From the NCBI RefSeq assembly GCF_017876815.1, contig NZ_JAGIOS010000002.1, forward strand, positions 1,230,001 through 1,262,000: a stretch of 32,000 bases of DNA. The letters are read 5' to 3'. The translations under genes and the position numbers were made by a program. Positions 3,732 to 26,437 of this stretch are shown piece by piece. Under the pieces are notes generated by a model. It had not been told where the DNA came from and did not search any database. It saw nothing but the letters and a program-made list of their open reading frames with translations. The stretch comes from Sinorhizobium meliloti (GTDB lineage Bacteria; Pseudomonadota; Alphaproteobacteria; Rhizobiales; Rhizobiaceae). The first letter of the stretch is position 1, and every line of letters begins with the position of its first letter.

Positions 3732-4880
3732 TCATCCTTGAACCGACTTGAGCCAGTCGCCGATCGTAGCCCCACGGTCCCGCTCCGGCGGCGCAACGGG
3801 CGTGGCGAGGCGTTCGGCGGCCGCGGCCTTGCGGATTTCGCGCGGATTCGCTCCGAATTCGTGGCTAAAGGCACGGGTGAAATTCGCGGCAAGGTCGAAG
3901 CCGGCCGCTTCCGCGATCTCCGCGATGGGCCTGTTGTTCGTCGGATCGCTGAGCTCCGCGTAGGCCTGCAGGAGCCGGCGTCTTCGAATATAGTTCAGCA
4001 CGCCGCCGCTCGGCTCGAAAAGCTGATAGAGGCGGGTTCTGGAAATGCCGAGCTCCCGGCATATGGCTTCGGGCGTCAGGTCGCCCGAGTTAAGGTTGAG
4101 ATGGATATATCGGTGCGCCCGCTCCATCACTCCCATTTTCGCCTGGGAACCTCCCGCATCCGGTCTCACCGCCGCCACGCAGGCAACGACCATGTCGCGT
4201 ATCGTGCGAACGATACGTGGCACTTCTTCCACGGTGATGTTGCCGAGGTTTTCTTCCATGCCGTTGATATAGTTGGCGAGCAGGCCGGCGAGGCTGCCGA
4301 ACAAGACCGAATTGTTAGCGCCTTCGAGCTTGCCCGCATCGTCCGCAAGCAGTTCATAGGGCATGAAGAGAAGGATCGATGCGGCATCCGTCATCCGCCC
4401 ACGATAGGGATAGCCGAGCGACCGGAAGAAAAACTCTCCCGGTCCCGTCTCGGTGACGCGGCGGTCGGCTTCGGTCCATGACCGGCCGCTGCGAAAGAGG
4501 CCGACGTTCCAATGGTCGATCGGGCTCGAGCGCAACATCGTCTGGGAGCGCTCGTAACTATGTGCCGGCGTCACCTGTTGAACGATCAGCAAATCGCCGA
4601 GATGCCATCCGGTCAGCTCCGCCGGGAAGCCGTCCTCTTCGGACACCCCGTCGGGCAAGCGCACCTCCACGAGCGGCGCCATATGCGCACGCCAGGATCT
4701 GAATTGCTCTTGCGGCGGCAGATCACGCGTCGAGAATCGCGAAGGTACGAGCGCCGGTGACCTTTCGGATAAACGGTCCTTTCGAGCTGTTGGATCGCGC
4801 GGCCAACGGCGCCGCTCCATATGGGCAGGCCAAGCCGGAATTTCGACGGGGTCATCTCCTGATCCGGAGTCCTTCGTCAT
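3732..4880 (-). CDS. cuxR: AraC-family activator, CuxR-like (c-di-GMP-responsive regulator of the adjacent polysaccharide operon)
   Basis: 382 aa from ATG 4880, with GGGAGA 5 nt upstream. C-terminal bipartite AraC HTH: LTPEAICRELGISRTRLYQLF and IAEIAEAAGFDLAANFTRAFSHEFGANPREIR. The Arg-rich N-terminus carries RxxxR motifs. Its position divergent from uxs1 matches S. meliloti SMb20457. Confidence 0.85.
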   Translation of the reverse strand: MTKDSGSGDDPVEIPAWPAHMERRRWPRDPTARKDRLSERSPALVPSRFSTRDLPPQEQFRSWRAHMAPLVEVRLPDGVSEEDGFPAELTGWHLGDLLIVQQVTPAHSYERSQTMLRSSPIDHWNVGLFRSGRSWTEADRRVTETGPGEFFFRSLGYPYRGRMTDAASILLFMPYELLADDAGKLEGANNSVLFGSLAGLLANYINGMEENLGNITVEEVPRIVRTIRDMVVACVAAVRPDAGGSQAKMGVMERAHRYIHLNLNSGDLTPEAICRELGISRTRLYQLFEPSGGVLNYIRRRRLLQAYAELSDPTNNRPIAEIAEAAGFDLAANFTRAFSHEFGANPREIRKAAAAERLATPVAPPERDRGATIGDWLKSVQG

Positions 4881-5237
4881 GCAACTCTCCCGCGAAATGG
4901 ATTGCCCGTTTGGGTGAGCCCAAACGAGCGATTATCCGGGCGTCGAATCTGTCCCACTCTGGCGTAACTCGCCTCGGGGTGGAATCGAATCGGCGAGGCA
5001 CACCTTCCAGTTTCCAGTTTATACCCCTTTATATGTAGAAATGCACGGCGGGATAACAATCGGGATTGGGTGATAATGACAATTCCCATCCGCTGGTTGT
5101 ATTAAATACCTACAGTTATTCCAAGCATTGCCGAAAATTAAATAAGGTAGTTTCGAACGGTAAAATTTCGATCACCAATTTATTGTGCCTGCTGTGGATG
5201 AATTTTAGAAGTTAGCAGATAGTGTGAGGAATATTCC
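4881..5237. promoter_or_regulatory. divergent cuxR/uxs1 control region with a pronounced AT-rich island
   Basis: 357-bp gap. I counted 40 G+C in the 120 nt of 5101-5220 (33%). It contains several short direct repeats and one hairpin, detailed in the findings. Confidence 0.7.
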
Positions 5238-6284
5238 GTGAACTATTTCAGAAATGACTTCAGGGGAACTCTCTTCGGCGCGGATTACGCTACAGATTCA
5301 TTGCGGCGTCGGAGCAATCAAAAGAGAATACTTGTTACCGGCGGTGCCGGATTCCTGGGCTCGCATCTTTGCGAGTTGCTTCTCGGCGCCGGGCACGAGG
5401 TCATCTGCCTCGACAATTTCTCCACAGGCCTGAGGCGCAATATCGCGCCGCTCACGCGCTTCGATACCTTCCGCGTCGTAGCCCACGACGTCGTGGAGCC
5501 GATCGACCTCGAGGTTGACGAAATCTATAACCTCGCCTGCCCGGCATCGCCGCCGCATTACCAGGCAGACCCGATCCAGACGACGAAAACCTGCGTGATC
5601 GGCTCGCTCAACCTCCTCGATCTGGCCGCGCGTCGTGGCGCACGAATCTTCCAGGCGTCCACATCGGAAATCTACGGCGACCCGCACGTCCACCCGCAGG
5701 TGGAGAGCTATTGGGGTAACGTCAATCCCTTTGGCCCGCGCTCCTGCTATGACGAGGGCAAGCGTTGCGCAGAGACCCTGTTCTTCGACTTCCACAAGTC
5801 CCATGGGGTCGCAATCAAGATCGTTCGTATCTTCAACACCTACGGTCCGCGGATGCGCCCGGATGACGGCCGTGTCGTTTCCAACTTCATCGTCCAGGCC
5901 CTGAAAGGTGAGGACATCACGATCTACGGCGACGGCTCGCAGACTCGTTCCTTCTGTTTCGTCGACGACCTGATCGACGGCTTCATCCGCCTGATGGCGT
6001 CGCCGCCGTCGCTTACCGGCCCGGTCAATCTCGGCAATCCGGCAGAGTTCACGATCGGCGAACTCGCCGAAGAGGTGATCCGGTTGACCGGCTCGCGCTC
6101 GAAGATCGTCCGGCGGCCCCTGCCTGTCGACGATCCCCGCCAGCGCCGCCCCGACATCTCGCTCGCGACGGAAGAGCTCGGTTGGCGTCCGAAGGTCAAT
6201 TTGGCCGAGGGCCTTGCGCACACGATCCGTTATTTCGACGACCTTCTCTCCCGGTCGATACGGCAAAACGCGGAGCTGGTCTGA
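5238..6284 (+). CDS. uxs1: UDP-glucuronate decarboxylase (UDP-xylose synthase)
   Basis: 348 aa. GTG start with GAGGA 7 nt upstream. Motifs [22 protein letters not shown] (YxxxK), and the NTYGPRM...DGRVVSNF block typical of UXS enzymes. Confidence 0.92.
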
Positions 6285-7270
6285 TGGTTGCGCCACGTAT
6301 CCTCGTCACCGGTGGCGCCGGCTATATCGGCAGTCACACCGCGAAGCTTCTGCGTTTGGAGGGCATCGAGCCCGTCGTTTTCGACAATCTGACGACTGGA
6401 AACCGTTCCGCCGTGCGCTGGGGACCATTCGTTCAGGGAGATATCGTGGACGGGCGGCACCTGATCGAGGTCATCGAGGCCTATCAGCCGGACGCCGTCA
6501 TCCACTTCGCCGCATCCGCCTATGTCGGCGAATCCGTCGCCGATCCCGCGAAATACTACAACAACAACGTCCGCGGCACGCTGTCGCTCCTCGATGCATG
6601 TCGCCAGACGGGTGTCGACAAGGTGATCTTCTCATCGAGCTGCGCCACCTATGGCGTACCGGCGGTACTGCCCATCGACGAAGCGACGCCGCAGGCACCG
6701 ATCAACCCCTATGGTAAGACGAAACTGGTGGCCGAGCACATGCTCGCCGACTATGCGGCCGCCTTTGCGCTGAATTATGTTTCGCTGCGCTATTTCAACG
6801 CATGTGGCGCTGATCCTGAGGGTGACCTCGGCGAATGGCACGACCCGGAAACGCACCTCATTCCGCGGGCGCTCATGGCCGCGGCAGGCAGGATTCCGCA
6901 TCTGGAGATTTTCGGCGAGGACTACGATACCCCGGACGGAACCTGCGTACGCGACTATATCCACGTTGCCGATCTTGCGAGCGCTCATGTGCTGGCATAC
7001 CGGCATCTCGCCAAGGGCGGCGGGAACGTCGCGCTCAACCTCGGTACCGGGCGCGGATTCTCAATAAAGGAAGTCCTGCGAACGATCGGCGAAATCACCG
7101 GGCATGACGTCCCGGTCGTGTTTCGCCGCCGTCGTGCCGGAGATCCGCCGGCTCTCTATGCGGATGCCGGGCTTGCTTGCCGGACGCTCGGCTTCCTGCC
7201 GCGATATTCCGATCTCGAGACGATCGTGCGAACGGCGGCCCCATTCTTCGGGCTGGAGGTGCGGTCATGA
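6284..7270 (+). CDS. uxe: GalE-family UDP-sugar 4-epimerase (UDP-xylose/UDP-arabinose 4-epimerase)
   Basis: 328 aa from ATG 6284, which overlaps the uxs1 TGA (ATGA-type coupling). Motifs GGAGYIGSH, SSSCATYG, YGKTK. The upstream part of the track ORF lies inside uxs1. Confidence 0.9.
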   Translation: MVAPRILVTGGAGYIGSHTAKLLRLEGIEPVVFDNLTTGNRSAVRWGPFVQGDIVDGRHLIEVIEAYQPDAVIHFAASAYVGESVADPAKYYNNNVRGTLSLLDACRQTGVDKVIFSSSCATYGVPAVLPIDEATPQAPINPYGKTKLVAEHMLADYAAAFALNYVSLRYFNACGADPEGDLGEWHDPETHLIPRALMAAAGRIPHLEIFGEDYDTPDGTCVRDYIHVADLASAHVLAYRHLAKGGGNVALNLGTGRGFSIKEVLRTIGEITGHDVPVVFRRRRAGDPPALYADAGLACRTLGFLPRYSDLETIVRTAAPFFGLEVRS

Positions 7271-9132
7271 CCGTCCTTTCCACCAATGGACCGACGCGCA
7301 TTTCCGAGGACGGTGAGCCGCGGCTCGTACCTGTGCTCACGCGCGAACGCCGGATGGAATTTTTGCTCGGCGCAGGGCTCTGGGTAGCAGCGCTCGTCCA
7401 TTTTTGGGCCTGGTGGCTGGAGCCGCGCCATCACGTGGACGCCTTGGGCAGTACCATCGTGACCGCGGTCCTTGCCTGGGTCACGCTGCTGCCGGCCTAT
7501 TTCATCGCCGTCTTTTATGGCGCGCGGAAACCAAACGGACCGTTGCGGCTCCCGGCCGGCAGTCGCATCGCCATGGTCGTCACCAAGGCCCCGTCGGAAC
7601 CGTTTTCGGTCGTGGCTGAGACATTGGAGGCGATGCTTGCGCAGGACGTGCCGCACGACACCTGGCTTGCCGACGAGGATCCGTCTGAGGCGACGCTCGA
7701 CTGGTGCCGCAGCCATGGCGTCCTCGTCTCCACCCGCAAAGGCCGGGCAGACTATCACCGGACCACTTGGCCACGGCGCACGCGCTGCAAGGAGGGCAAT
7801 CTCGCCTTCTTCTATGATCACTACGGTTATGACCGGTACGACTTCGTGGCTCAGCTCGACGCCGACCATGTCCCCGCACCCGGTTACCTCTTCGAAATGC
7901 TACGCCCCTTTGCCGACCCGGCAGTAGGTTACGTTTCCGCGCCCAGCATCTGCAACCGCAACGCTTCCGCGAGTTGGTCGGCGCGCGGGCGCCTCGACGC
8001 GGAGGCGAGCATGCACGGCGCTCTTCAGGCCGGCTATAATGGCGGGCTCGCACCGCTTTGCATCGGCTCACACTATGCGGTGCGCACGGCCGCACTCAAG
8101 GAGATCGGCGGTCTCGGCCCGGAGCTTGCCGAAGACCATTCGACGACATTGATGATGAATGCGGGAGGCTGGCGCGGCATTCACGCACTCGACGCGATCG
8201 CCCATGGCGACGGACCGCGCACCTTTGCCGACCTGGTGACCCAGGAGTTCCAGTGGTCGCGTAGTCTCGTCATGCTCCTGCTGCAGTATTCGCCGCGTCT
8301 CGTTGGCCGGCTGCCGCTGCGACTGAAGTTCCAGTTCCTCTTCTCGCAGCTCTGGTATCCGCTCTTCGCGTGCTTCATGGCGCTGATGTTTGCAATGCCG
8401 ATCGTCGCCCTTGCACGCGGCGAGACCTTTGTCGCTGTGACCTATCCGGAGTTTCTGGCCTATTTCGCGCCGCTTTCGATCATCCTCGTCCTGCTAGCCT
8501 ATCGCTGGCGGGCAACCGGCGCCTTTCGGCCTTACGACGCAAAGATCCTGAGCTGGGAGTGCATGCTCTTCCTCTTTGCGCGCTGGCCGTGGGCACTTGC
8601 CGGTACGCTGGCCGCCTTGCGCGACTGGATCACCGGGTCCTTCGTGGATTTCCGTGTCACGCCAAAGGGATCATCCGAGGTCGACCCGCTGCCCCTGCGC
8701 GTGCTCGCGCCCTACTTCTTCCTGGCGGTTGCCGCTGTCCTGCCTGTCCTTTTCGTCGACGATGCCGCGAACGCCAAGGGGTTCTACCTCTTTGCGATTC
8801 TCAATGCGGCAATTTACTGCCTCCTTCTGCTGGTCATCGTCCTGCGGCATTCGAGGGAGAACGCCGTTGGCACCACCTCCCGTTTCTATCGCCCCGCAAT
8901 AGGGGCCGGGCTCCTGGCGATCGTCGCACTGCCCGGCATCGCGACGGCCGAACACGGGAAGGAGGGGCTCGAGGCACTCGCATGGGGCAGTGGGCACCTG
9001 CGCCTCTTCGAAGAGCGCTATGCGGTGGCCGGAGCCGGCCAGGGCGGTACGGCATTGCGAAAGATCGTCTTCCGTCCACGCTGGATTTCCGCCCCGGCGG
9101 AACAGCGGGACGGCAATTTAGAGAGGGGATAG
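7267..9132 (+). CDS. apsS: processive family-2 glycosyltransferase, cellulose-synthase-like polysaccharide synthase
   Basis: 621 aa from ATG 7267 (ATGA overlap with uxe). Two N-terminal and about six C-terminal hydrophobic segments. GT2 motifs LADED, QLDADH, ELAEDH and QEFQWSRS, the last sitting in the QxxRW position. Confidence 0.88.
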   Translation: MTVLSTNGPTRISEDGEPRLVPVLTRERRMEFLLGAGLWVAALVHFWAWWLEPRHHVDALGSTIVTAVLAWVTLLPAYFIAVFYGARKPNGPLRLPAGSRIAMVVTKAPSEPFSVVAETLEAMLAQDVPHDTWLADEDPSEATLDWCRSHGVLVSTRKGRADYHRTTWPRRTRCKEGNLAFFYDHYGYDRYDFVAQLDADHVPAPGYLFEMLRPFADPAVGYVSAPSICNRNASASWSARGRLDAEASMHGALQAGYNGGLAPLCIGSHYAVRTAALKEIGGLGPELAEDHSTTLMMNAGGWRGIHALDAIAHGDGPRTFADLVTQEFQWSRSLVMLLLQYSPRLVGRLPLRLKFQFLFSQLWYPLFACFMALMFAMPIVALARGETFVAVTYPEFLAYFAPLSIILVLLAYRWRATGAFRPYDAKILSWECMLFLFARWPWALAGTLAALRDWITGSFVDFRVTPKGSSEVDPLPLRVLAPYFFLAVAAVLPVLFVDDAANAKGFYLFAILNAAIYCLLLLVIVLRHSRENAVGTTSRFYRPAIGAGLLAIVALPGIATAEHGKEGLEALAWGSGHLRLFEERYAVAGAGQGGTALRKIVFRPRWISAPAEQRDGNLERG

Positions 9133-9136
9133 GAAC

Positions 9137-9751
9137 ATGAGAGTGAAAGTCCCATTCTTCGGGAGAGAGGTCCGCGGCACCCGACATGCGCTGCTCGGCA
9201 GGCACTTCGTCCTTGGCGTCTTGCCGGTCGCCCTATTCCTCTGGAATTCACCGGCGTCCGCGGAAGTTGCCGTTCCTGACAACGCCCGCACCATGACGGG
9301 CGTGGAGCTCTACATGATTTTCCAGGGCAAGACCTGGACATGGGAGAGCGGCGCCGGCCGGATGGAGAGTGAAGACCGTGCGTTCTGGGCCTGGGCGCAA
9401 TCGTCAACGGGAGAGAGCTGGGCCGAAGGCCGCTGGAGCGTGAATGACCGCGGCCAACTCTGCCTGATGGCCGTGTGGCACAGCCAGAGTGCTGCCGCCC
9501 CCGACAAGACCTGCTTCAGCCACCGCACGCTCGACGGAACCATTTACCAGAAAAGAGAGCCGTCGGGCGAGTGGTACGTCTTTAGACATGCCAAGGCGCA
9601 GGCAGGCGACGAGTTCAACCGTCTTGTCTCGGAAGATCTGGTCGCTTCCAAGCTCGCAGCCGTCAAGGAGCGTCTCGAGCGCCAAGTGAAAGAAACAAAG
9701 AATAGCGTTCGCCGGCACGCCGGCACGAACGCGGTTGGAGGTATGCAATGA
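9137..9751 (+). CDS. apsH1: secreted DUF995-type protein
   Basis: 204 aa. Signal peptide ...LFLWNSPASA/EV. Clear paralog of the protein at 10725..11234. Confidence 0.8.
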   Translation: MRVKVPFFGREVRGTRHALLGRHFVLGVLPVALFLWNSPASAEVAVPDNARTMTGVELYMIFQGKTWTWESGAGRMESEDRAFWAWAQSSTGESWAEGRWSVNDRGQLCLMAVWHSQSAAAPDKTCFSHRTLDGTIYQKREPSGEWYVFRHAKAQAGDEFNRLVSEDLVASKLAAVKERLERQVKETKNSVRRHAGTNAVGGMQ

Positions 9752-10725
9752 ACAGGAAATCAAAGGCCATTGCCTTCGCATCTTTCGGGCTATTGCTGTC
9801 CGGTACGGTGCTCGCGGCCAACATCCCGCGGGGTATTCCCGATCCGAACTCGGCGACGATGGCAACGCCATCGGACAAGCGGCCCGTACTAACGGAGAAC
9901 TCGGTCGATTTCGGCGCTTACGATCCTCACGGCGACTTCGGCACGCCGGGCAGCTCAAAGATCGAGCATCTCTTCCTGCCGTGGGAAGACGTCGACCTGT
10001 CGACGCTGACGCTTGCCGACGACTACGCCCAAGCGCGCGGCCGCTCGCTCATGATCACCGTGGAACCGTGGTCGTGGTCGCCCGAGTGGCGCGTGACCGA
10101 AGGGGAACTCCTGCGTTCGATCCTGAGCGGCGAACGCGACGAGAACATGGCTCGGGTCTGTTCGGCCGCCGCCGCCCTCAAGAGTCCCGTCATCATCCGC
10201 TGGGGTCAGGAAATGGACGAAACCGATAACCAGTTCTCCTGGTCGCATTGGCGGGGCGAGGACTTCAAGGCAGCCTATCGCCGCGTGGTGAATGTCTGCC
10301 GCAGCCACCTGAAGAACGCGAAGTTCATGTGGTCTCCCAAAGGCAACGAGGGGCTGGAAGCCTTCTATCCAGGTGACGACGTCGTCGATATCGTCGGGCT
10401 CTCGGTATTCGGTTACCAGCCTTACGACCAGGGCACGACCGGCCGCGATCAGACATTTGCGGAGCGGCTAGCGCCCGGATACGGCCGGGTGATGAACTAC
10501 GGCAAGCCGATCATGGTCGCCGAGCTCGGCTACGAGGGCGGTGGTTCATACGTCGCAAGCTGGGCGGCAACGGTCGCCGAGCGCCACGCCGAATTCCCCC
10601 AACTGACAGCCGTGGTCTACTTCAACGATCGCGAGATTTATGACTGGCCGCAGGGCTACGGCCGGCCCGATTGGCGGGTCGTCCGCAATACCATTAGCGG
10701 GCAAGTGCCCGATGGAGGCATGTGA
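9748..10725 (+). CDS. apsE: secreted glycoside hydrolase, GH26-like
   Basis: 325 aa with an ATGA overlap with apsH1. Signal peptide ...SGTVLAANIP. The blocks IIRWGQEMDE...FSWSHW and IMVAELGYEG resemble the GH26 acid/base and nucleophile glutamate motifs. Confidence 0.75.
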   Translation: MNRKSKAIAFASFGLLLSGTVLAANIPRGIPDPNSATMATPSDKRPVLTENSVDFGAYDPHGDFGTPGSSKIEHLFLPWEDVDLSTLTLADDYAQARGRSLMITVEPWSWSPEWRVTEGELLRSILSGERDENMARVCSAAAALKSPVIIRWGQEMDETDNQFSWSHWRGEDFKAAYRRVVNVCRSHLKNAKFMWSPKGNEGLEAFYPGDDVVDIVGLSVFGYQPYDQGTTGRDQTFAERLAPGYGRVMNYGKPIMVAELGYEGGGSYVASWAATVAERHAEFPQLTAVVYFNDREIYDWPQGYGRPDWRVVRNTISGQVPDGGM

Positions 10726-11234
10726 TGAAATCGATATATCGAGGAATACCTTTGGCCATCGCGCTGGCCGCCAGCATAGCCGGTGCTTCACTCGCCGAAG
10801 CCGCCGCTGGGCGTGCCGAGAGGAAGACCACTCCCCTGACGCACGCAGAACTGTACCAACTCTACGGCCAGAAATCCTGGATATGGAAAGAGGGCGCAGG
10901 CTATTTCTCGGTGCAGGCGCGCCGGTTCATCGCCTGGTCCAAGGAGAACGGAAAACCGTCCTATGGGGTAGGCCGCTGGTTCATCACCGGTCCTGGGAAA
11001 CTATGCTTCCGTGCCGAATGGCATGCCAGGGATGGCTCGTCGCCAGCGACGACCTGCTTCAGCCACGCCAAGCGGGGTGGCGTGATCTATCAGAGGCGGG
11101 AGCCGGATGGCGCCTGGTACGTCTTCAAGAACGCACGGGTGAGGCCAGATGACGAGTTCGCCAAGCTTCGGCGCGGCAATTACGTGGGCGCAAGCCTGAA
11201 CCGCATCGAGGCGAGACTCGGCCGGGTCGAGTAA
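10725..11234 (+). CDS. apsH2: secreted DUF995-type protein (second paralog)
   Basis: ATG 10725 overlaps the apsE TGA. GTG 10722 is an alternative start. Signal peptide MKSIYRGIPLAIALAASIAGASLAEA. It shares the TCFSH and IYQ.REP.G.WYVF blocks with apsH1. Confidence 0.8.
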   Translation: MKSIYRGIPLAIALAASIAGASLAEAAAGRAERKTTPLTHAELYQLYGQKSWIWKEGAGYFSVQARRFIAWSKENGKPSYGVGRWFITGPGKLCFRAEWHARDGSSPATTCFSHAKRGGVIYQRREPDGAWYVFKNARVRPDDEFAKLRRGNYVGASLNRIEARLGRVE

Positions 11235-11423: not shown

Positions 11424-11726
11424 CTAACGAAGGAAGCAGCGCGAGGTGCTTCCGAAGCCGCTGGGCGTGCAGATATAGGGAGCCCGCCCGAGATAGGCCG
11501 AGCGCACCAGTTTTGGCGTTTTTTGCGTGACCGCTTGCTTGCCCAGCGCGGGCTTCCTTTCAGGCGAGGGGTAGCCGACTTCCCGCGTGATCGAAGCGGT
11601 CGTTTCCTGGCTGACCGTCGAGGAGCAGCCCCAGGCAGCGGCGGCGAGCATCACCGCAAGAGTGCTGCGGGCGACGGTTTTGCGGGCTTCGAACAGTCCG
11701 GACAATGCTTTCGTCTTTACCTTCAC
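11424..11726 (-). CDS. small putative lipoprotein / secreted protein
   Basis: 100 aa. GTG start with GGGGAG 8 nt upstream. Hydrophobic leader ...LAVMLAAAAWGC/SST has an atypical lipobox. The C-terminus has a Cys pair, APYICTPSGFGSTSRCF. Confidence 0.5.
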   Translation of the reverse strand: MKVKTKALSGLFEARKTVARSTLAVMLAAAAWGCSSTVSQETTASITREVGYPSPERKPALGKQAVTQKTPKLVRSAYLGRAPYICTPSGFGSTSRCFLR

Positions 11727-13134: not shown

Positions 13135-14292
13135 ATGCAGACACCGATCAATATCGACCCGGAATATCTCACCAGCCGGCTGAAAGCTCTGCTCGACATT
13201 GCGAGCCCCACCGGCTTCACCGATGAGGCGGTGCGCTACACGGCGCGTGAGCTCGAGCGCCTCGGCCTTGAAGTCAAGCTGACCCGCCGGGGTGCGATCC
13301 GCGCTCTTCGGCCGGGGGCTGCCGAGCGGCCGGCCCGCGGGATCGTCTCGCACTTGGACACCCTCGGCGCGCAGGTGAAGGCGCTGAAGGAAAACGGCCG
13401 CCTCGAACTGGTATCGATCGGGCACTGGTCGGCACGGTTCGCGGAGGGGGCTCGCGCCTCGATCTTTTCCGGCAAGGGCACCTATCGCGGCTCAATTCTC
13501 CCTCTGAAAGCTTCCGGTCACACCTTCAACGAGGAGGTCGACACGCAACTGACAGGCTGGCGCCATATCGAGCTGCGCGTCGATGCGCTCGCCCGCGACC
13601 GCAACGACCTGGTGCAGCTCGGAATAGACGTCGGCGACATCGTCGCCATCGATCCGCAGCCGGAATTCCTCGAGAACGGGTTCATCGTTTCGCGGCATCT
13701 CGACGACAAGGCGGGGGTCGCCATCATGCTTGCGGCGCTTGAGGCCATGCAGCGTGAGAAGGTGGACACGCCGGTCGACACCTATTGGCTCTTCACCATC
13801 GGCGAGGAAGTAGGTGTAGGCGCGTCAGCGGCAATCGTCCCGGAAATCGCCTCGCTGGTGGCGATAGACAACGGCACGACCGCGCCGGGCCAGAATTCGG
13901 ACGAGTTCGGCGTGACTCTCGCAATGGCGGACCAGACGGGACCTTTCGACTATCACCTCTCAAAAAAGCTTTACGAGCTTTGCGGCGAGCATGGCATCCG
14001 CGTCCAGAAGGACGTCTTCCGCTACTACCGTTCCGATGCCGCTTCCGCGGTCGAGGCGGGGCACGACGTCCGCACGGCCCTTCTCACTTTCGGTGTCGAC
14101 GCGTCGCACGGCTATGAGCGTATTCACCTCCATGCCCTGATGTCCGTTGCGAAGCTCGCGGTGTATCACACGGCAAGCGAGGTCCAGATCGAGCGCGACG
14201 CCGAGGAGGTCTCCGGCCTTCGGGGCTTTACCCGGCAGAAGGTACGACAGGCCGAGCAGGATTTGAAGGCGGACGAGCCGGACGTATCCTGA
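13135..14292 (+). CDS. M42-family metallo-aminopeptidase/hydrolase, probably the NAGGN-associated type
   Basis: 385 aa. M42-like blocks SHLDTLG, SRHLDDKAGVA, TIGEEVGVGAS and VDASHGYER. The link to NAGGN is inferred from asnO-ngg lying 7.5 kb downstream. Confidence 0.8.
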   Translation: MQTPINIDPEYLTSRLKALLDIASPTGFTDEAVRYTARELERLGLEVKLTRRGAIRALRPGAAERPARGIVSHLDTLGAQVKALKENGRLELVSIGHWSARFAEGARASIFSGKGTYRGSILPLKASGHTFNEEVDTQLTGWRHIELRVDALARDRNDLVQLGIDVGDIVAIDPQPEFLENGFIVSRHLDDKAGVAIMLAALEAMQREKVDTPVDTYWLFTIGEEVGVGASAAIVPEIASLVAIDNGTTAPGQNSDEFGVTLAMADQTGPFDYHLSKKLYELCGEHGIRVQKDVFRYYRSDAASAVEAGHDVRTALLTFGVDASHGYERIHLHALMSVAKLAVYHTASEVQIERDAEEVSGLRGFTRQKVRQAEQDLKADEPDVS

Positions 14293-21794: not shown

Positions 21795-23570
21795 ATGTGT
21801 GGAATTTGTGGAGAAGTCAGGTTCGATGGCGGTTCGCCGTCGGTTACGGCAGTCTCGATCATGGCGGACGTCCTTGCCCCTCGCGGGCCGGATGCGTCAG
21901 GCGTGGTGGTGCGCGGGAATGTCGGACTGGGGCACCGGCGATTGCGTATTCTCGACCTCTCCGACAAGTCGCAGCAGCCGATGGTCGATTCCGACCTCGG
22001 CCTATCGCTCGTCTTCAACGGCTGCATCTACAATTTTCGCGAACTGAGGTTGGAGCTTGAAGAGAAGGGTTACAGATTCTTCTCGTCCGGCGATACCGAG
22101 GTCATCCTGAAGGCGTGGCATGCCTGGGGCGAGGAATGCGTCTCGCGTTTCCATGGCATGTTCGCATTCGTCATTCACGAGCGCGACAGCGGACGCGTCG
22201 TCATGGCGCGCGACCGTTTCGGGATCAAGCCGCTCTATATCGCCGAAGTACAGGGCGCCTTGCGCTTCGCTTCCGCCTTGCCCGCGCTCGTCAAGGCGGG
22301 CGGCGTCGACACCTCGATCGACGTGGCCGCGCTCCACAACTACATGACCTTCCACGCGGTCGTGCCGCCGCCGCGCACGATCCTGAACGGCGTTCGCAAG
22401 CTGCCGCCTGCGACCCTTCGCGTTTATGAACGTGACGGCAGCTTCGAGGACCGGCGCTACTGGGATCCGCCCTATCGCCGCCAGGCAGGTGACTCAGCCA
22501 TAAGCCGCGAGGAATGGCAGGAACAGCTCCTCGACGCGCTGCGCATTGCCGTGAAGCGTCGCATGGTCGCCGACGTGCCGGTCGGCGTGCTTCTTTCCGG
22601 CGGCGTCGATTCCAGCCTGATCGTCGGGCTTCTCGCGGAAGCGGGCCAGCGCGGTCTCATGAGCTTCTCCGTCGGCTTCGAGGAGGCAAACGGCGAAAAG
22701 GGCGACGAATTCGTCTATTCGGACCTGATCGCCGGTCACTTCGGTACGGATCATCGCAAGATATTCGTCCCCTCCGCCGATCTGATGGGGGCCTTGCCCG
22801 GGACCATCGCCGCAATGTCCGAGCCGATGGTCTCCTATGACAATGTCGGCTTCTATCTGCTCTCGAAGGAGGTTTCGAAGCACGTCAAGGTCGTACAGTC
22901 GGGGCAGGGTGCGGACGAGGTCTTCGGAGGTTACCACTGGTACCCGCCGCTGATGAACTCCAACGACGTCGTTGCGGATTACGGCAAGGCCTTCCGCGAC
23001 CGTTCCCACGCGGTCTTGACCACCCAGTTGTCGGATGCCTGGATTGCCGACCATGACGTGAGTAGCGACTTGCTGAACGAGCACCTCCTGCGCGAGGGTG
23101 CCGATACGCCCGTCGATCAGGCGCTCCGCCTCGACAGCAACGTTATGCTCGTCGACGACCCCGTGAAGCGGGTCGACAATATGACCATGGCCTGGGGCCT
23201 CGAAGCGCGCGTGCCTTTCCTCGACCACGAGCTGGTGGAACTTGCCGCGCGCATGCCCCCGGAGGAGAAGCTGCGCGACGGCGGCAAGGGCATTCTGAAG
23301 GACGTGGCGCGCCGGGTCATTCCGAGCGAGGTCATCGACCGCAAGAAAGGCTATTTCCCGGTGCCGCAGCTCAAATATATCGCCGGTCCGTATCTCGATC
23401 TGATCCGCGATACCTTGCGCTCGCAGAAGGCGCGCGAGCGGGGCCTCTTCCAAGATGCTTATCTTGACCGCCTGTTCCAGGAGCCGTCGGATCACATCAC
23501 GCCGCTGCGCGGCTCCGAACTGTGGCAGGTCGGACTTCTTGAAATGTGGCTTGAAGCGCAGGGGGTATAG
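21795..23570 (+). CDS. asnO: asparagine-synthase-family glutamine amidotransferase (N-acetylglutaminylglutamine amidotransferase)
   Basis: 591 aa from ATG 21795, chosen so that the protein begins MCGICG (Cys2 Ntn nucleophile). PP-loop motif LLSGGVDSS. It is followed directly by ngg, as in S. meliloti SMb20481-82. Confidence 0.88.
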   Translation: MCGICGEVRFDGGSPSVTAVSIMADVLAPRGPDASGVVVRGNVGLGHRRLRILDLSDKSQQPMVDSDLGLSLVFNGCIYNFRELRLELEEKGYRFFSSGDTEVILKAWHAWGEECVSRFHGMFAFVIHERDSGRVVMARDRFGIKPLYIAEVQGALRFASALPALVKAGGVDTSIDVAALHNYMTFHAVVPPPRTILNGVRKLPPATLRVYERDGSFEDRRYWDPPYRRQAGDSAISREEWQEQLLDALRIAVKRRMVADVPVGVLLSGGVDSSLIVGLLAEAGQRGLMSFSVGFEEANGEKGDEFVYSDLIAGHFGTDHRKIFVPSADLMGALPGTIAAMSEPMVSYDNVGFYLLSKEVSKHVKVVQSGQGADEVFGGYHWYPPLMNSNDVVADYGKAFRDRSHAVLTTQLSDAWIADHDVSSDLLNEHLLREGADTPVDQALRLDSNVMLVDDPVKRVDNMTMAWGLEARVPFLDHELVELAARMPPEEKLRDGGKGILKDVARRVIPSEVIDRKKGYFPVPQLKYIAGPYLDLIRDTLRSQKARERGLFQDAYLDRLFQEPSDHITPLRGSELWQVGLLEMWLEAQGV

Positions 23571-23571
23571 C

Positions 23572-25359
23572 ATGAAGAAGTCGCGCGAGATCGCATTGCC
23601 GCGTCAACGCAGCAAGGGCACCAAGGCGGTCACGCACCGGCTGAACCGGTTGCGGACGCATACTCAGCCAGGGCGCGATGCCGAGGGGTCGAGAACCGCC
23701 GGAGGGGCGAAGCGGGACGTCGTGCTCGACTGCGGTTGGGGCAGGCTCCTGTTCGCGCAGACGTTTTCCGACGACGAGAAACTCTTGTCCGAATTGCGCG
23801 AGGAAGCCCCCTCGAGCCGGGACATTGCCTTCTACGTACGGGACCCGCATGTGCTTCTGTCACGGGCGCCACAGGAGATTTTCCTCGACCCCTCCCACAC
23901 CTACCGGCTCGACCTGTGGACCTACCGTGCAAACACCCGCCGCACGCGAGGCATCACGATCCGCAGGCTCGCGTCGGAAGCCGATGGAGACGGCATCAAC
24001 CGGGTCTATGCCGCTTGCGGCATGGTCCAGATCCGATCCGATTTCTTCTCGTCCGAGCGGGACGACCGGTCGCTGACCTATTTCGTGGCGCAGGACGACG
24101 CCACGGGCGAGATCGTCGGCACGGTCACCGGCATCGACCACCAGAGACTGTTCGACGATCCGGACCGCGGCGCTTCGCTGTGGTGTCTCGCGGTGCATCC
24201 GCAGGCGCGCCAGCCGGGCATCGGCGAACATCTGGTCCGCAAGCTTGCCGAGCATTTCCAGGCACGCGGCCTTTCCTATGTCGACCTGTCGGTGATGCAC
24301 GACAATACGTTGGCGATCGGGCTCTATGAGAAGCTGAATTTCCGGCGCATGCCGCTTTTCGCCATCAAGCGGAAGAATGCGATCAATGAGAAGTTTTTCG
24401 CGATGCCACATCAATCCTACGATGCGCTCAATCCCTATGCGCGGCTGATCGTGGATGAGGCGACGCGGCGCGGGATCCATGTCGAAATCACCGATGCGGA
24501 AGGCGGGTTTTTCCGCCTGTCCCATGGCGGACGCTCGATTCATTGCCGCGAGAGCCTATCGGAACTGACTTCCGGCGTCGCGATGTCGATCTGTGACGAC
24601 AAGGCGATTACCCGCCGCATGGTCTCCGCGGCAGGGCTGGTCGTCCCGGACCAGATCGAAGTGGATGAAAACGGCAAGGCCATTCAGGACTTCCTAAAGA
24701 AGCACGGCAAGCTGGTGGTCAAGCCGGCACGCGGCGAGCAGGGCCGGGGCATCTCGGTCGGCATCACGACGATGGAAGCGCTGGAGGAGGCAATCGCCTC
24801 GGCCCGTCAGGTCTGCGACCGGGTATTGCTGGAAGCCTTTTTCGAGGGAGAGGACCTCCGCCTCGTGATCATCGACTATACGCTTGTTGCCGCCGCGGTT
24901 CGCTTGCCGCCGCGGGTCATTGGCGACGGCCGCAGCAAGATCGCTTCCCTCATCGGGAAACAGTCGCGCCGCCGCGAGGCCGCTACGGGCGGCGAAAGCC
25001 GGATTCCGCTCGATGCGGAGACGGATCGCTGCCTTGGGGAGCAGGGTCTCGATCTCGAAACGATACTGGAAGAGGGACGGGAGATTACGGTTCGCAAGGC
25101 CGCCAATCTCCATGCGGGCGGTTCGATCCACGACGTGACGGAGATCGTGCACCCCGATCTTGTCGAGGCCGCCTGCCGCGCGGCGCGGGCAATCAACATC
25201 CCGGTGGTCGGCATCGACCTCATGGTCCGCGATCCGGCGGAACCGGACTACGTCTTCATCGAGGCCAACGAGCGCCCCGGCCTGGCAAATCACGAACCAC
25301 AGCCGACGGCGGCGAGCTTCATAGAGCTGCTTTTCCCCGGCAGCCGCACGGCAGTGTAG
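23572..25359 (+). CDS. ngg: bifunctional GNAT acetyltransferase / ATP-grasp ligase (N-acetylglutaminylglutamine synthetase)
   Basis: 595 aa. The ATG is 1 nt after the asnO TAG, with AGGGGG upstream. GNAT block VHPQARQPGIGEHLVRKLAEHFQARG. ATP-grasp blocks LVVKPARGEQGRGISV and FIEANERPGL. Confidence 0.85.
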   Translation: MKKSREIALPRQRSKGTKAVTHRLNRLRTHTQPGRDAEGSRTAGGAKRDVVLDCGWGRLLFAQTFSDDEKLLSELREEAPSSRDIAFYVRDPHVLLSRAPQEIFLDPSHTYRLDLWTYRANTRRTRGITIRRLASEADGDGINRVYAACGMVQIRSDFFSSERDDRSLTYFVAQDDATGEIVGTVTGIDHQRLFDDPDRGASLWCLAVHPQARQPGIGEHLVRKLAEHFQARGLSYVDLSVMHDNTLAIGLYEKLNFRRMPLFAIKRKNAINEKFFAMPHQSYDALNPYARLIVDEATRRGIHVEITDAEGGFFRLSHGGRSIHCRESLSELTSGVAMSICDDKAITRRMVSAAGLVVPDQIEVDENGKAIQDFLKKHGKLVVKPARGEQGRGISVGITTMEALEEAIASARQVCDRVLLEAFFEGEDLRLVIIDYTLVAAAVRLPPRVIGDGRSKIASLIGKQSRRREAATGGESRIPLDAETDRCLGEQGLDLETILEEGREITVRKAANLHAGGSIHDVTEIVHPDLVEAACRAARAINIPVVGIDLMVRDPAEPDYVFIEANERPGLANHEPQPTAASFIELLFPGSRTAV

Positions 25360-25366
25360 CGGCCCG

Positions 25367-26437
25367 TCATTCCCGCGGCATCTCGCTGTCCATCAGCGCA
25401 TCGAGCGGACCGGTCAGCGCCGTTCTCGGCGGCACGAGCTGCGGCTCGATCATGTGTATCTGCAAGGATGCTCTCGGTTCCTCGATCACTTCGAAGGCCT
25501 TGGCTATCATTCCCTCGATATTCTGCCGGATCATGATGACGGGGAAGGGGAGGAAGGAGGCGAACGGGTCGTAATCGTAGCAGCCGACGACGAGATCCGT
25601 GAAATTTTCGAGCGGATGCTCGGCCATGAAACGCAGCAATCCCTCGAAATTGATCGATGAGTTGACGAAGAAGCCGCGCGGCAGTTTTCCATGCTGTTCG
25701 TAGAAGGCTTCGAACGCCTTTCGCGCGTTGTCGGCGGCATAGCCGGTCGGCCATATGCACTCGTCCGGATCGCTTCCCAGCAGCTCCTGCTTCACCGCCC
25801 GAAATCCGCGGATGCGCTCGCGCGTGGCGTGATCATCGCGCCCGCCGAACAGGTAGAGATCGTCGGGCTCGAGCGGCCGCTCGGCGGGGAAGTGGCGGAT
25901 GATCGCCTCGGTCAGGAGGCGGCCGCCTTCGAAATTGTCGCTGATGACCGACGGCACTTTCGTACCGGGGAGATCGATGTTGATATGCCTTAGGCCGGCC
26001 GCTTCGCAGACCTCGTGCACGCCATCGGGATCCGTCGCGCCGCAGATAAACAATTCGTCGATGGAATAGGAGATCAGCGTTTCGGCCGTCCTGCGCTCCT
26101 CCTCCGGGTCCCGGCTCGCACTGACAACGATCGGACATTGGCCCTTGCTACGCACATGCGCCTCGAAGGTCTGGGCAAGCGAAGAAAAGTAGCGGTTGTC
26201 GTGTACGGGCAGGAGCAGACCGACGAGGCCGGAACGGGAACTGCGTAGGCCCCGCGCTTGCCGGTTTGCAGTGTACTGGTGGGTTTCGGCGAGGCTTCGG
26301 ATGAGCTCCGCGGTGCTTTCCTTGATCCGTCGCTTGCGCCACGTGCCGTTTAGCACCGCACTGACGGTAGAGGGCGAACTTCCCGACAGCACCGAGAGAT
26401 CATAGATCGTCGCTTTTTTCCTGCCGCCGTTCGTCAT
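25367..26437 (-). CDS. LacI-family transcriptional regulator
   Basis: 356 aa from ATG 26437, with GGAGGAGG upstream. HTH block ATIYDLSVLSGSSPSTVSAVLNG. The rest is a periplasmic-binding-protein-like effector domain. Confidence 0.9.
   Translation of the reverse strand: MTNGGRKKATIYDLSVLSGSSPSTVSAVLNGTWRKRRIKESTAELIRSLAETHQYTANRQARGLRSSRSGLVGLLLPVHDNRYFSSLAQTFEAHVRSKGQCPIVVSASRDPEEERRTAETLISYSIDELFICGATDPDGVHEVCEAAGLRHINIDLPGTKVPSVISDNFEGGRLLTEAIIRHFPAERPLEPDDLYLFGGRDDHATRERIRGFRAVKQELLGSDPDECIWPTGYAADNARKAFEAFYEQHGKLPRGFFVNSSINFEGLLRFMAEHPLENFTDLVVGCYDYDPFASFLPFPVIMIRQNIEGMIAKAFEVIEEPRASLQIHMIEPQLVPPRTALTGPLDALMDSEMPRE

Follow-up and report, generated by a model that had tools for sequence, protein, structure and literature searches.

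The CuxR-controlled arabinose-containing polysaccharide locus in another isolate of Sinorhizobium meliloti: annotation and candidate further components

Is an operon that joins two nucleotide-sugar enzymes to a membrane glycosyltransferase and three secreted proteins, with no export gene beside it, a new polysaccharide system or a known one, and how would its product be made and released? We addressed this question for a seven-gene locus at positions 3732 to 11234 of a 32,000-nucleotide (nt) stretch of Sinorhizobium meliloti DNA (contig NZ_JAGIOS010000002.1, positions 1,230,001 to 1,262,000); the whole stretch analyzed is called the window below. The window very probably carries the S. meliloti CuxR/arabinose-containing polysaccharide (APS) locus of megaplasmid pSymB in another isolate, not a mere look-alike. 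This CuxR/APS system is already described, and the present work is correct annotation, not discovery. Its wider interest lies in CuxR, the first AraC-type receptor for cyclic di-GMP (c-di-GMP), and in its target operon, which serves a biofilm polysaccharide that contains arabinose in a model symbiont of legumes. To the known system we add three modest, testable leads: a small Cys-loop protein, a QEFQW variant of the synthase and the fold of the DUF995 proteins.

The gene names used here, and the account that links c-di-GMP, CuxR and an arabinose polysaccharide, are given in PMC7902896, PMC12560781 and PMC9495663. The uxs1 operon makes APS, and overexpression of the diguanylate cyclase PleD together with CuxR yields wrinkled, red colonies on Congo red (PMC7902896); binding of c-di-GMP to CuxR, the AraC-type activator of the operon, switches APS on (PMC9495663). 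The enzymes SmUxs1 and SmUxe of strain 1021 (Gu et al. 2011) have been used to produce UDP-arabinose in Escherichia coli, as stated in PMC8196924. In S. fredii, c-di-GMP induces the orthologous cluster 11- to 113-fold, and overexpressing that cluster yields a Congo-red-binding exopolysaccharide (EPS) (PMC12560781). Papers of 2025-2026 still name the product a "cryptic arabinose-containing" EPS.

Identity of the locus

All seven open reading frames (ORFs) of the locus are intact. The first, cuxR (3732 to 4880, minus strand), is predicted to encode an AraC-like, c-di-GMP-binding transcriptional activator of 382 amino acids (aa). A divergent, AT-rich control region of 357 bp (4881 to 5237) separates it from six genes on the plus strand. 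These are uxs1 (5238 to 6284), for a UDP-glucuronate decarboxylase (UDP-xylose synthase) of 348 aa; uxe (6284 to 7270), for a GalE-type UDP-xylose/UDP-glucose 4-epimerase of 328 aa; apsS (7267 to 9132), for a membrane BcsA-like family-2 glycosyltransferase and putative processive APS synthase of 621 aa; apsH1 (9137 to 9751), for a DUF995 protein of 204 aa, predicted to be secreted; apsE (9748 to 10725), for a GH26-family glycoside hydrolase of 325 aa, also predicted to be secreted; and apsH2 (10725 to 11234), for a second DUF995 protein of 169 aa with the same predicted fate. The original prediction, made from the letters of the DNA alone, had described a divergent AraC gene facing six coupled genes of these kinds, with four of the five junctions overlapping by 1 to 4 nt. 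Pfam, the public annotation and the coordinates confirm this description, and its count of overlaps is exact: the junctions from uxs1 to apsH2 measure -1, -4, +4, -4 and -1 nt.

Some start codons needed attention. The uxs1 gene starts with GTG and has the Shine-Dalgarno sequence GAGGAA, and its stop codon overlaps the uxe start by 1 nt. The longest mechanical ORFs of uxe (from 6182) and apsS (from 7177) begin too early; the public annotation uses the overlapping ATG codons at 6284 and 7267, respectively. For apsH2, which starts with ATG at 10725, an in-frame GTG at 10722 is an alternative that would give 170 aa. Convergent to apsH2, and outside the interval covered by the original prediction, lies a small ORF of 100 aa (11424 to 11726, minus strand).

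By megablast against plasmid records, the 7,503 nt of the locus are 100.0% identical to the pSymB-type replicons of SM11 and two further S. meliloti strains, and the locus is at least 99.7% identical to 26 plasmid records. A longer query of 7,995 nt was still 100% identical to SM11 pSymB and to the replicons of these two strains, and 96.0% identical to strain Rm2011. The pSymB DNA of strain 1021 (NC_003078.1) was compared by tblastn. All locus proteins aligned to it at full length, gap free and collinear, at 91 to 99% identity: CuxR at 97.1%, Uxs1 at 96.6%, Uxe at 98.8%, ApsS at 97.7%, ApsH1 at 91.2%, ApsE at 97.8% and ApsH2 at 98.8%. The flanks matched as well, with 90% identity for the TetR protein, 96% for the short-chain dehydrogenase/reductase (SDR), 99% for the small ORF and 99% for the ROK protein. 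The window regulator is also 97% identical, over residues 1 to 382, to PDB entry 5NLA, which we take to be the CuxR crystal structure. Because of this match, together with the identity and collinearity with strains 1021 and SM11, we regard the window as holding the published locus in a different isolate. The earlier proposal of a gene-for-gene match to the S. meliloti cuxR-APS locus (SMb20457-63 in that proposal), described and not new, thus stands, with close orthology to 1021 pSymB extending into the flanks. We found no counterevidence to the identification as the CuxR/APS locus.

For comparison we scanned one genome per species, which gave 290 ApsS relatives, and examined the best 80 (69 to 95% identity), which come from Rhizobiaceae, Phyllobacteriaceae, Brucellaceae and relatives; 68 of these loci have complete flanks. 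Among the 68, uxs1 is present in all, uxe and apsE in 67 each, and cuxR in 65. At least one DUF995 gene occurs in 66 loci and two copies in 37.

CuxR and the uxs1 promoter

CuxR matches HTH_18 (E 4.9e-14) and, weakly, AraC_binding_2 in Pfam. Its N terminus, E22-R-R-R-W-P-R28, holds an RxxxR motif (R24-R28), and conservation across 76 homologs is at least 95% at E22, R23, R24, R25 and R28 and at least 80% at W26 and P27. Schaeper reportedly found in 2017 that CuxR contacts c-di-GMP through the RxxxR motif. PMC12560781 makes the same assignment and cites that study. For the S. fredii protein, the dissociation constant with c-di-GMP is 2.75 uM (PMC12560781).

The region between cuxR and uxs1 has a GC content of 46%, versus 61 to 64% in the genes, and across the 32 kb GC content is lowest in the bin 5001 to 6000. 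In S. fredii, the CuxR-c-di-GMP footprint in the uxs1 promoter (Puxs1) spans 63 bp and includes the direct repeat 'CG-GAT--CG-GAT', which is essential to CuxR-DNA binding in electrophoretic mobility shift assays (PMC12560781). The window has a direct repeat CGGGAT-N6-CGGGAT at 5049 to 5066 (plus strand), 172 to 189 nt 5' of the uxs1 start, and this is the sole match in the 32 kb. Since it fits the experimentally defined S. fredii element, we propose it as a candidate CuxR operator. Thirteen promoters from Sinorhizobium, Neorhizobium and Rhizobium share a conserved block, AGAAATGCACGG-nnGATAAC-nAT-CnGGATTG-nnnGATAAT-GACA, in which the GAT cores are invariant. A strict form of the box (CGNGAT-N5-7-CGNGAT) occurs 5' of uxs1 in only 6 of 79 related loci. 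The putative CuxR box is degenerate beyond close relatives, and the GAT cores alone are invariant. Scanning the window with the σ70 consensus gave no promoter match, as expected because rhizobial promoters differ from that consensus. Terminator-like matches did not exceed chance level, and no Rfam RNA family was found in the whole window.

The regulatory steps that we propose have been shown in the literature for orthologous loci. In S. fredii, the silencer MucR1 coats the AT-rich Puxs1; MucR1 also binds c-di-GMP, which loosens DNA bridging, and a mucR1 mutant expresses the operon even without CuxR (PMC12560781). The AT-rich region at 4881 to 5237 is probably the corresponding MucR-silenced promoter Puxs1. 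MucR would silence it until a rise in c-di-GMP loosened MucR bridging. By binding CuxR through the N-terminal RxxxR motif and the cupin domain, c-di-GMP would then allow CuxR to bind the direct repeat 5' of uxs1 and turn on the six-gene operon. The cells would then produce a polysaccharide that contains arabinose, binds Congo red and promotes both aggregation and the formation of biofilm.

Synthesis and exit of the polymer

The enzyme and export steps, as opposed to the regulatory ones, are deduced from sequence. Pfam Epimerase is found in both SDR genes, uxs1 (E 4e-52) and uxe (E 5e-61). Uxs1 also matches GDP_Man_Dehyd; among solved structures it comes closest to human UDP-glucuronate decarboxylase 1 (UXS1; PDB 2B69, E 7e-115), and its name in the PGAP annotation is "UDP-glucuronic acid decarboxylase family protein." On NCBIfam TIGR01179 (galE), where the equivalog cutoff is 262.3, Uxe reaches 419.9 bits, and matches the UDP-glucose 4-epimerase 4TWR in the PDB (E 8e-155). 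Uxs1 would convert UDP-glucuronate (UDP-GlcA), supplied in S. meliloti by a UDP-glucose 6-dehydrogenase gene (ugd) elsewhere, to UDP-xylose (UDP-Xyl). Uxe would turn UDP-Xyl into UDP-L-arabinose (UDP-Ara) and also interconvert UDP-glucose (UDP-Glc) and UDP-galactose (UDP-Gal).

In 26 of the 68 complete loci, an extra gene stands between apsS and apsH1. We considered it as the missing exporter and rejected this, as the gene is ugd; an example is found in Chelativorans xinjiangense (locus L037, 11880 to 13295). Many loci of Mesorhizobium, Chelativorans, the Rhizobium tropici group, Brucellaceae and Kaistia have the insert, which S. meliloti lacks. With ugd in the cluster, the pathway from UDP-Glc through UDP-GlcA and UDP-Xyl to UDP-Ara is complete and self-sufficient from UDP-Glc.

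What sugar enters the chain bears on the first alternative, that ApsS produces not an arabinan but a polymer of xylose, galactose or mixed sugars, with arabinose as only one constituent. Uxs1 supplies UDP-Xyl, and Uxe is described as bifunctional, acting on UDP-Xyl/UDP-Ara and UDP-Glc/UDP-Gal (as worded in the title of Schaeper 2019). A β-1,3-xylanase is among the PDB matches of ApsE, the literature goes no further than "arabinose-containing," and an Aestuariivirga cluster has the epimerase and no uxs1 beside the synthase. Against this, uxe is present in 67 of 68 loci, directly 5' of apsS and overlapping it, which argues that the epimerized sugar is the ApsS substrate. We hold such a polymer to be less likely than not and retain the epimerized pentose as the preferred substrate.

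ApsS matches Glyco_trans_2_3, Glyco_tranf_2_3, Glyco_transf_21 and, weakly, Cellulose_synt in Pfam. It aligns with BcsA (4HG6 and 5EJ1) over the catalytic core and the subsequent transmembrane (TM) helices (E 2e-15). At least six segments are strongly hydrophobic, one or two before the glycosyltransferase domain and at least four after it, a multi-TM layout that would be expected of a channel-forming synthase. Of the GT2-type motifs it carries D, DAD198 and AED288, and QEFQW (residues 326 to 330) stands at the QxxRW position; this variant may be linked to a pentose donor or acceptor. No PilZ or other c-di-GMP receptor domain was found in ApsS or its neighbors with Pfam, and the lack of PilZ in ApsS fits control by c-di-GMP at the level of transcription, through CuxR. 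ApsS would polymerize the sugar and thread the chain through its own TM channel to the periplasm.

Beyond the synthase, ApsH1, ApsE and ApsH2 each have a signal-peptide-like hydrophobic N terminus. ApsH1 and ApsH2 are paralogs (40% identity), and both match DUF995 in Pfam (E 4e-58 and E 1e-60, respectively). An alignment of 68 DUF995 members has invariant W67, W69, W100, W114, W146, F127, F149 and H129 and two invariant cysteines. In the AlphaFold2 (AF2) model of ApsH1, the core (residues 50 to 180; predicted local distance difference test [pLDDT] score above 94) consists of eight antiparallel strands and a C-terminal helix, and no PDB sequence matched DUF995. The predicted fold is thus β-rich and has no solved relative. 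We do not claim kinship with lipocalins or other small β-barrels, as the Foldseek resemblance was vague. Three distant members of the DUF995 family, one each from Aestuariivirga, the Brucella/Ochrobactrum group and Kaistia, all lie within aps-like clusters, next to a family-2 glycosyltransferase (GT2) synthase and a GH26 gene, and for this reason DUF995 looks like a dedicated periplasmic accessory of ApsS-type synthases. As detected by homology, DUF995 is confined to aps-like clusters. Among the papers searched, none ties DUF995 to the APS system. The secreted, aromatic-rich ApsH1 and ApsH2 may bind or guide the glycan.

ApsH1 is the fastest-evolving gene product of the cluster and the one most often absent. 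It is 91% identical to its strain 1021 counterpart (neighbors, 97 to 99%) and 73% identical to that of S. medicae (neighbors, about 90%). Loci of the S. fredii-like kind and of the R. leguminosarum group have no apsH1 gene and retain a single DUF995 gene.

Several points weigh against this scheme or against taking it as settled. For the set of required genes and for the sugar composition we relied on secondary citations. CuxR differs from 5NLA by 11 substitutions, none of them inside E22-R28. The Arg-to-Gln change that turns QxxRW into QEFQW is invariant in all 81 ApsS homologs. The roles proposed for ApsS, ApsE, ApsH1 and ApsH2 are suggested by homology and localization signals, and glycan binding by the two DUF995 proteins is a guess from the invariant Trp, His and Phe residues and the predicted periplasmic location. 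A Foldseek search of the PDB with the ApsH1 AF2 model returned no neighbor below E 0.16, with TM scores of at most 0.48. The 32-kb window has no gene for a tetratricopeptide repeat (TPR) scaffold or an outer-membrane β-barrel porin or exporter, and in the clustered flanking ORFs of the 80 related loci no outer-membrane, TPR, membrane-fusion, Wzx/Wzy or ABC-exporter family is conserved. The original prediction had likewise seen no export gene in or beside the operon, and the comparison across 80 loci makes the missing export genes a general property of the aps system.

This lack of a porin, in the window and beside the related loci alike, would be accounted for if APS left the cell through the general channel TolC and the periplasmic proteins of the locus had no export role. 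A precedent exists in the same species: TolC is needed for the mixed-linkage β-glucan (MLG) of S. meliloti, which is also c-di-GMP-controlled and synthase-dependent (PMC13438883). The MLG system, however, has an HlyD-type adaptor, BgsB, that can dock to TolC, whereas the aps locus encodes no membrane-fusion protein. We consider exit through TolC a reasonable alternative but rather unlikely; in the scheme that we favor, the polymer would cross the outer membrane without a locus-encoded porin.

ApsE is the third secreted protein. It matches Pfam Glyco_hydro_26 (PF02156) with 29.4 bits (cutoff, 20.2) over residues 146 to 227, and has weak PDB matches to GH26 enzymes, the xylanase mentioned above among them. 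Across 79 homologs, residues E155 and E259, 104 positions apart, show at least 97% conservation, and E259 aligns with the Glu of 'TETG' in the GH26 structure 4ZXO; we infer that E155 and E259 are the candidate catalytic acid/base and nucleophile. ApsE would trim or free chains, like BcsZ. Its family could also suggest that the cluster is a locus for glycan degradation or utilization around a β-mannanase and not biosynthetic, for apsE is called "beta-mannosidase" in some public annotations, and ApsE finds its best PDB relatives among hydrolases that act on plant glycans. However, translational coupling links apsE to two nucleotide-sugar enzymes and a BcsA-like synthase, and the operon has no sugar importer or catabolic genes. 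Periplasmic hydrolases are usual in synthase-dependent EPS systems, as with BcsZ, PslG, PgaB and AlgL. Overexpression of the orthologous cluster, moreover, gives a Congo-red-binding EPS (PMC12560781, PMC7902896). A degradative function is therefore highly improbable, and we keep to the biosynthetic one.

The small ORF at 11424 to 11726 is annotated publicly as a "hypothetical protein," and neither Pfam nor NCBIfam has a model that matched it. Its product, predicted to be secreted or lipid anchored, has a signal peptide with a lipobox-like site (AAWGC), a variable linker rich in Lys, Thr and Ser, and the C terminus YLGRAPYICTPSGFGSTSRCF. Most homologs have a canonical lipobox (…SGC/AGC); the others have a signal of the signal peptidase I type. 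When 1.84 billion cluster representatives were searched with a profile, 271 matched, all of about 90 to 125 aa with the motif at the C terminus. That motif, 'YLGRAPYIC(T/S)PSGFG..x.CF' with its two cysteines, a putative disulfide-type loop, is invariant, and the remainder of the protein is fully diverged. The AF2 model (pLDDT score, 55) has the signal helix only and no globular fold.

The gene keeps close company with aps genes. In 54 of the 68 complete loci, from several Hyphomicrobiales families, they are adjoined by a small ORF bearing C(T/S)PSGF, and it is present in 37 of the 37 loci with two DUF995 genes. Where apsH2 has been relocated 5' of cuxR (loci L054 and L078), the small ORF has been relocated too. 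In several loci, apsH2 and the small ORF are separated by a second GH26 gene, which is on the strand of the small ORF and whose product shares about 40% identity with ApsE. In Ensifer sp. LC163 (locus L083, 10001 to 11547), the small gene is directly 5' of a GH26 gene, and the 10 kb around them hold no synthase; the small gene is also accompanied by a GH26 paralog in L016, L018, L019, L035 and L042-L044. This pairing suggests a functional link between the small protein and the hydrolase. We propose the small ORF as a candidate additional, unnamed APS component. More tentatively, APS as described could be incomplete, with the small protein as a dedicated eighth component, one that is maybe tethered and regulates or inhibits the GH26 enzyme, or else works as a partner of DUF995; together with DUF995, it would perhaps be part of a porin-less exit of the pentose polymer. 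We put this forward as a minority possibility.

Related loci and known systems

The aps operon also occurs on other replicons. SM11 carries a second six-gene aps operon (locus L085) on pSmeSM11b (NC_010865.1, 74885 to 80872), a 181-kb conjugative accessory plasmid. This S. medicae-like copy is about 84% identical to the window, has no cuxR and lies between ISRm32 and Tn3-family transposases; the copy and its transposase flanks are evidence of horizontal movement of the operon. That the window itself holds such a separately acquired, diverged copy, perhaps with different regulation, is refuted, its probability being next to nil, for although the SM11 copy exists, the window has cuxR, matches pSymB-type replicons at 100% over 7,995 nt where the plasmid copy reaches just 84%, and shares its pSymB flanks (TetR, SDR, ROK and the osmoprotectant genes described below) with strains ml56 and 1021. 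The window is best read as the resident pSymB locus.

A complete aps cluster was also found on contig JAHREI010000003.1 (L070), labeled Bacillus subtilis SK6B4. Its gene order is the same as, and its small protein near-identical to, that of Pseudochrobactrum and "Rhizobiales bacterium" loci (L072, L074 and L082), and the assembly is probably contaminated or mislabeled.

At 7 to 10 kb 5' of apsS, mostly in Sinorhizobium, we observed a GGDEF protein gene (21 loci; e.g., L011, 75 to 1340) and a SpoIIE-type phosphatase/partner-switching module (23 loci; e.g., L003, 24 to 2348). These neighbors may reflect lineage synteny rather than a functional link. By annotation, the other genes of the window comprise TetR, SDR and ROK genes, genes for the osmoprotectant N-acetylglutaminylglutamine amide (NAGGN), ABC importers dependent on substrate-binding proteins, and regulators. 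The NAGGN genes lie at 13135 to 14292 and at about 21806 to 25370 (both plus strand), split by a peptide ABC importer, and encode an M42 peptidase, an N-acetylglutaminylglutamine amidotransferase and a synthetase. They appear unrelated to the APS locus.

Of the known systems, cellulose synthesis by BcsA-BcsB-BcsZ-BcsC shares with aps a homologous GT2 synthase, a periplasmic hydrolase partner and control by c-di-GMP. In aps, however, c-di-GMP acts on transcription via CuxR instead of on a synthase PilZ domain, and there is no BcsB and no BcsC/TPR porin. The hydrolase is of family GH26 in aps and GH8 in Bcs, the motif is QEFQW in place of QxxRW, and the predicted substrate is a pentose nucleotide sugar.

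The S. meliloti MLG system, BgsBA with TolC, shares with aps the species, activation by c-di-GMP, dependence on a synthase and an operon without a porin. Unlike aps, it has c-di-GMP binding to the synthase C terminus and an HlyD-type adaptor, and it lacks nucleotide-sugar enzymes, a hydrolase and DUF995.

Closer still is the uxs1-apsH cluster of S. fredii CCBAU45436, which shares the divergent cuxR, the AT-rich MucR-bound promoter, the CuxR direct repeat, uxs1-uxe-apsS-apsE with DUF995, inducibility by c-di-GMP and a product that binds Congo red (PMC12560781). It differs in having five genes with a single apsH (PMC12560781) and is about 79% identical to the window in nucleotide sequence; a single DUF995 gene, with apsH1 missing, is also found in many Sinorhizobium and Rhizobium loci. 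The APS locus of Rm2011/1021 on pSymB has the same replicon position, the same flanks and the same eight genes, small ORF included, in the same order. ApsH1 is the most diverged protein between the two (91%), the promoters are 95% identical, and the window differs from this locus by strain-level polymorphism only, amounting to about 4% of nucleotides.

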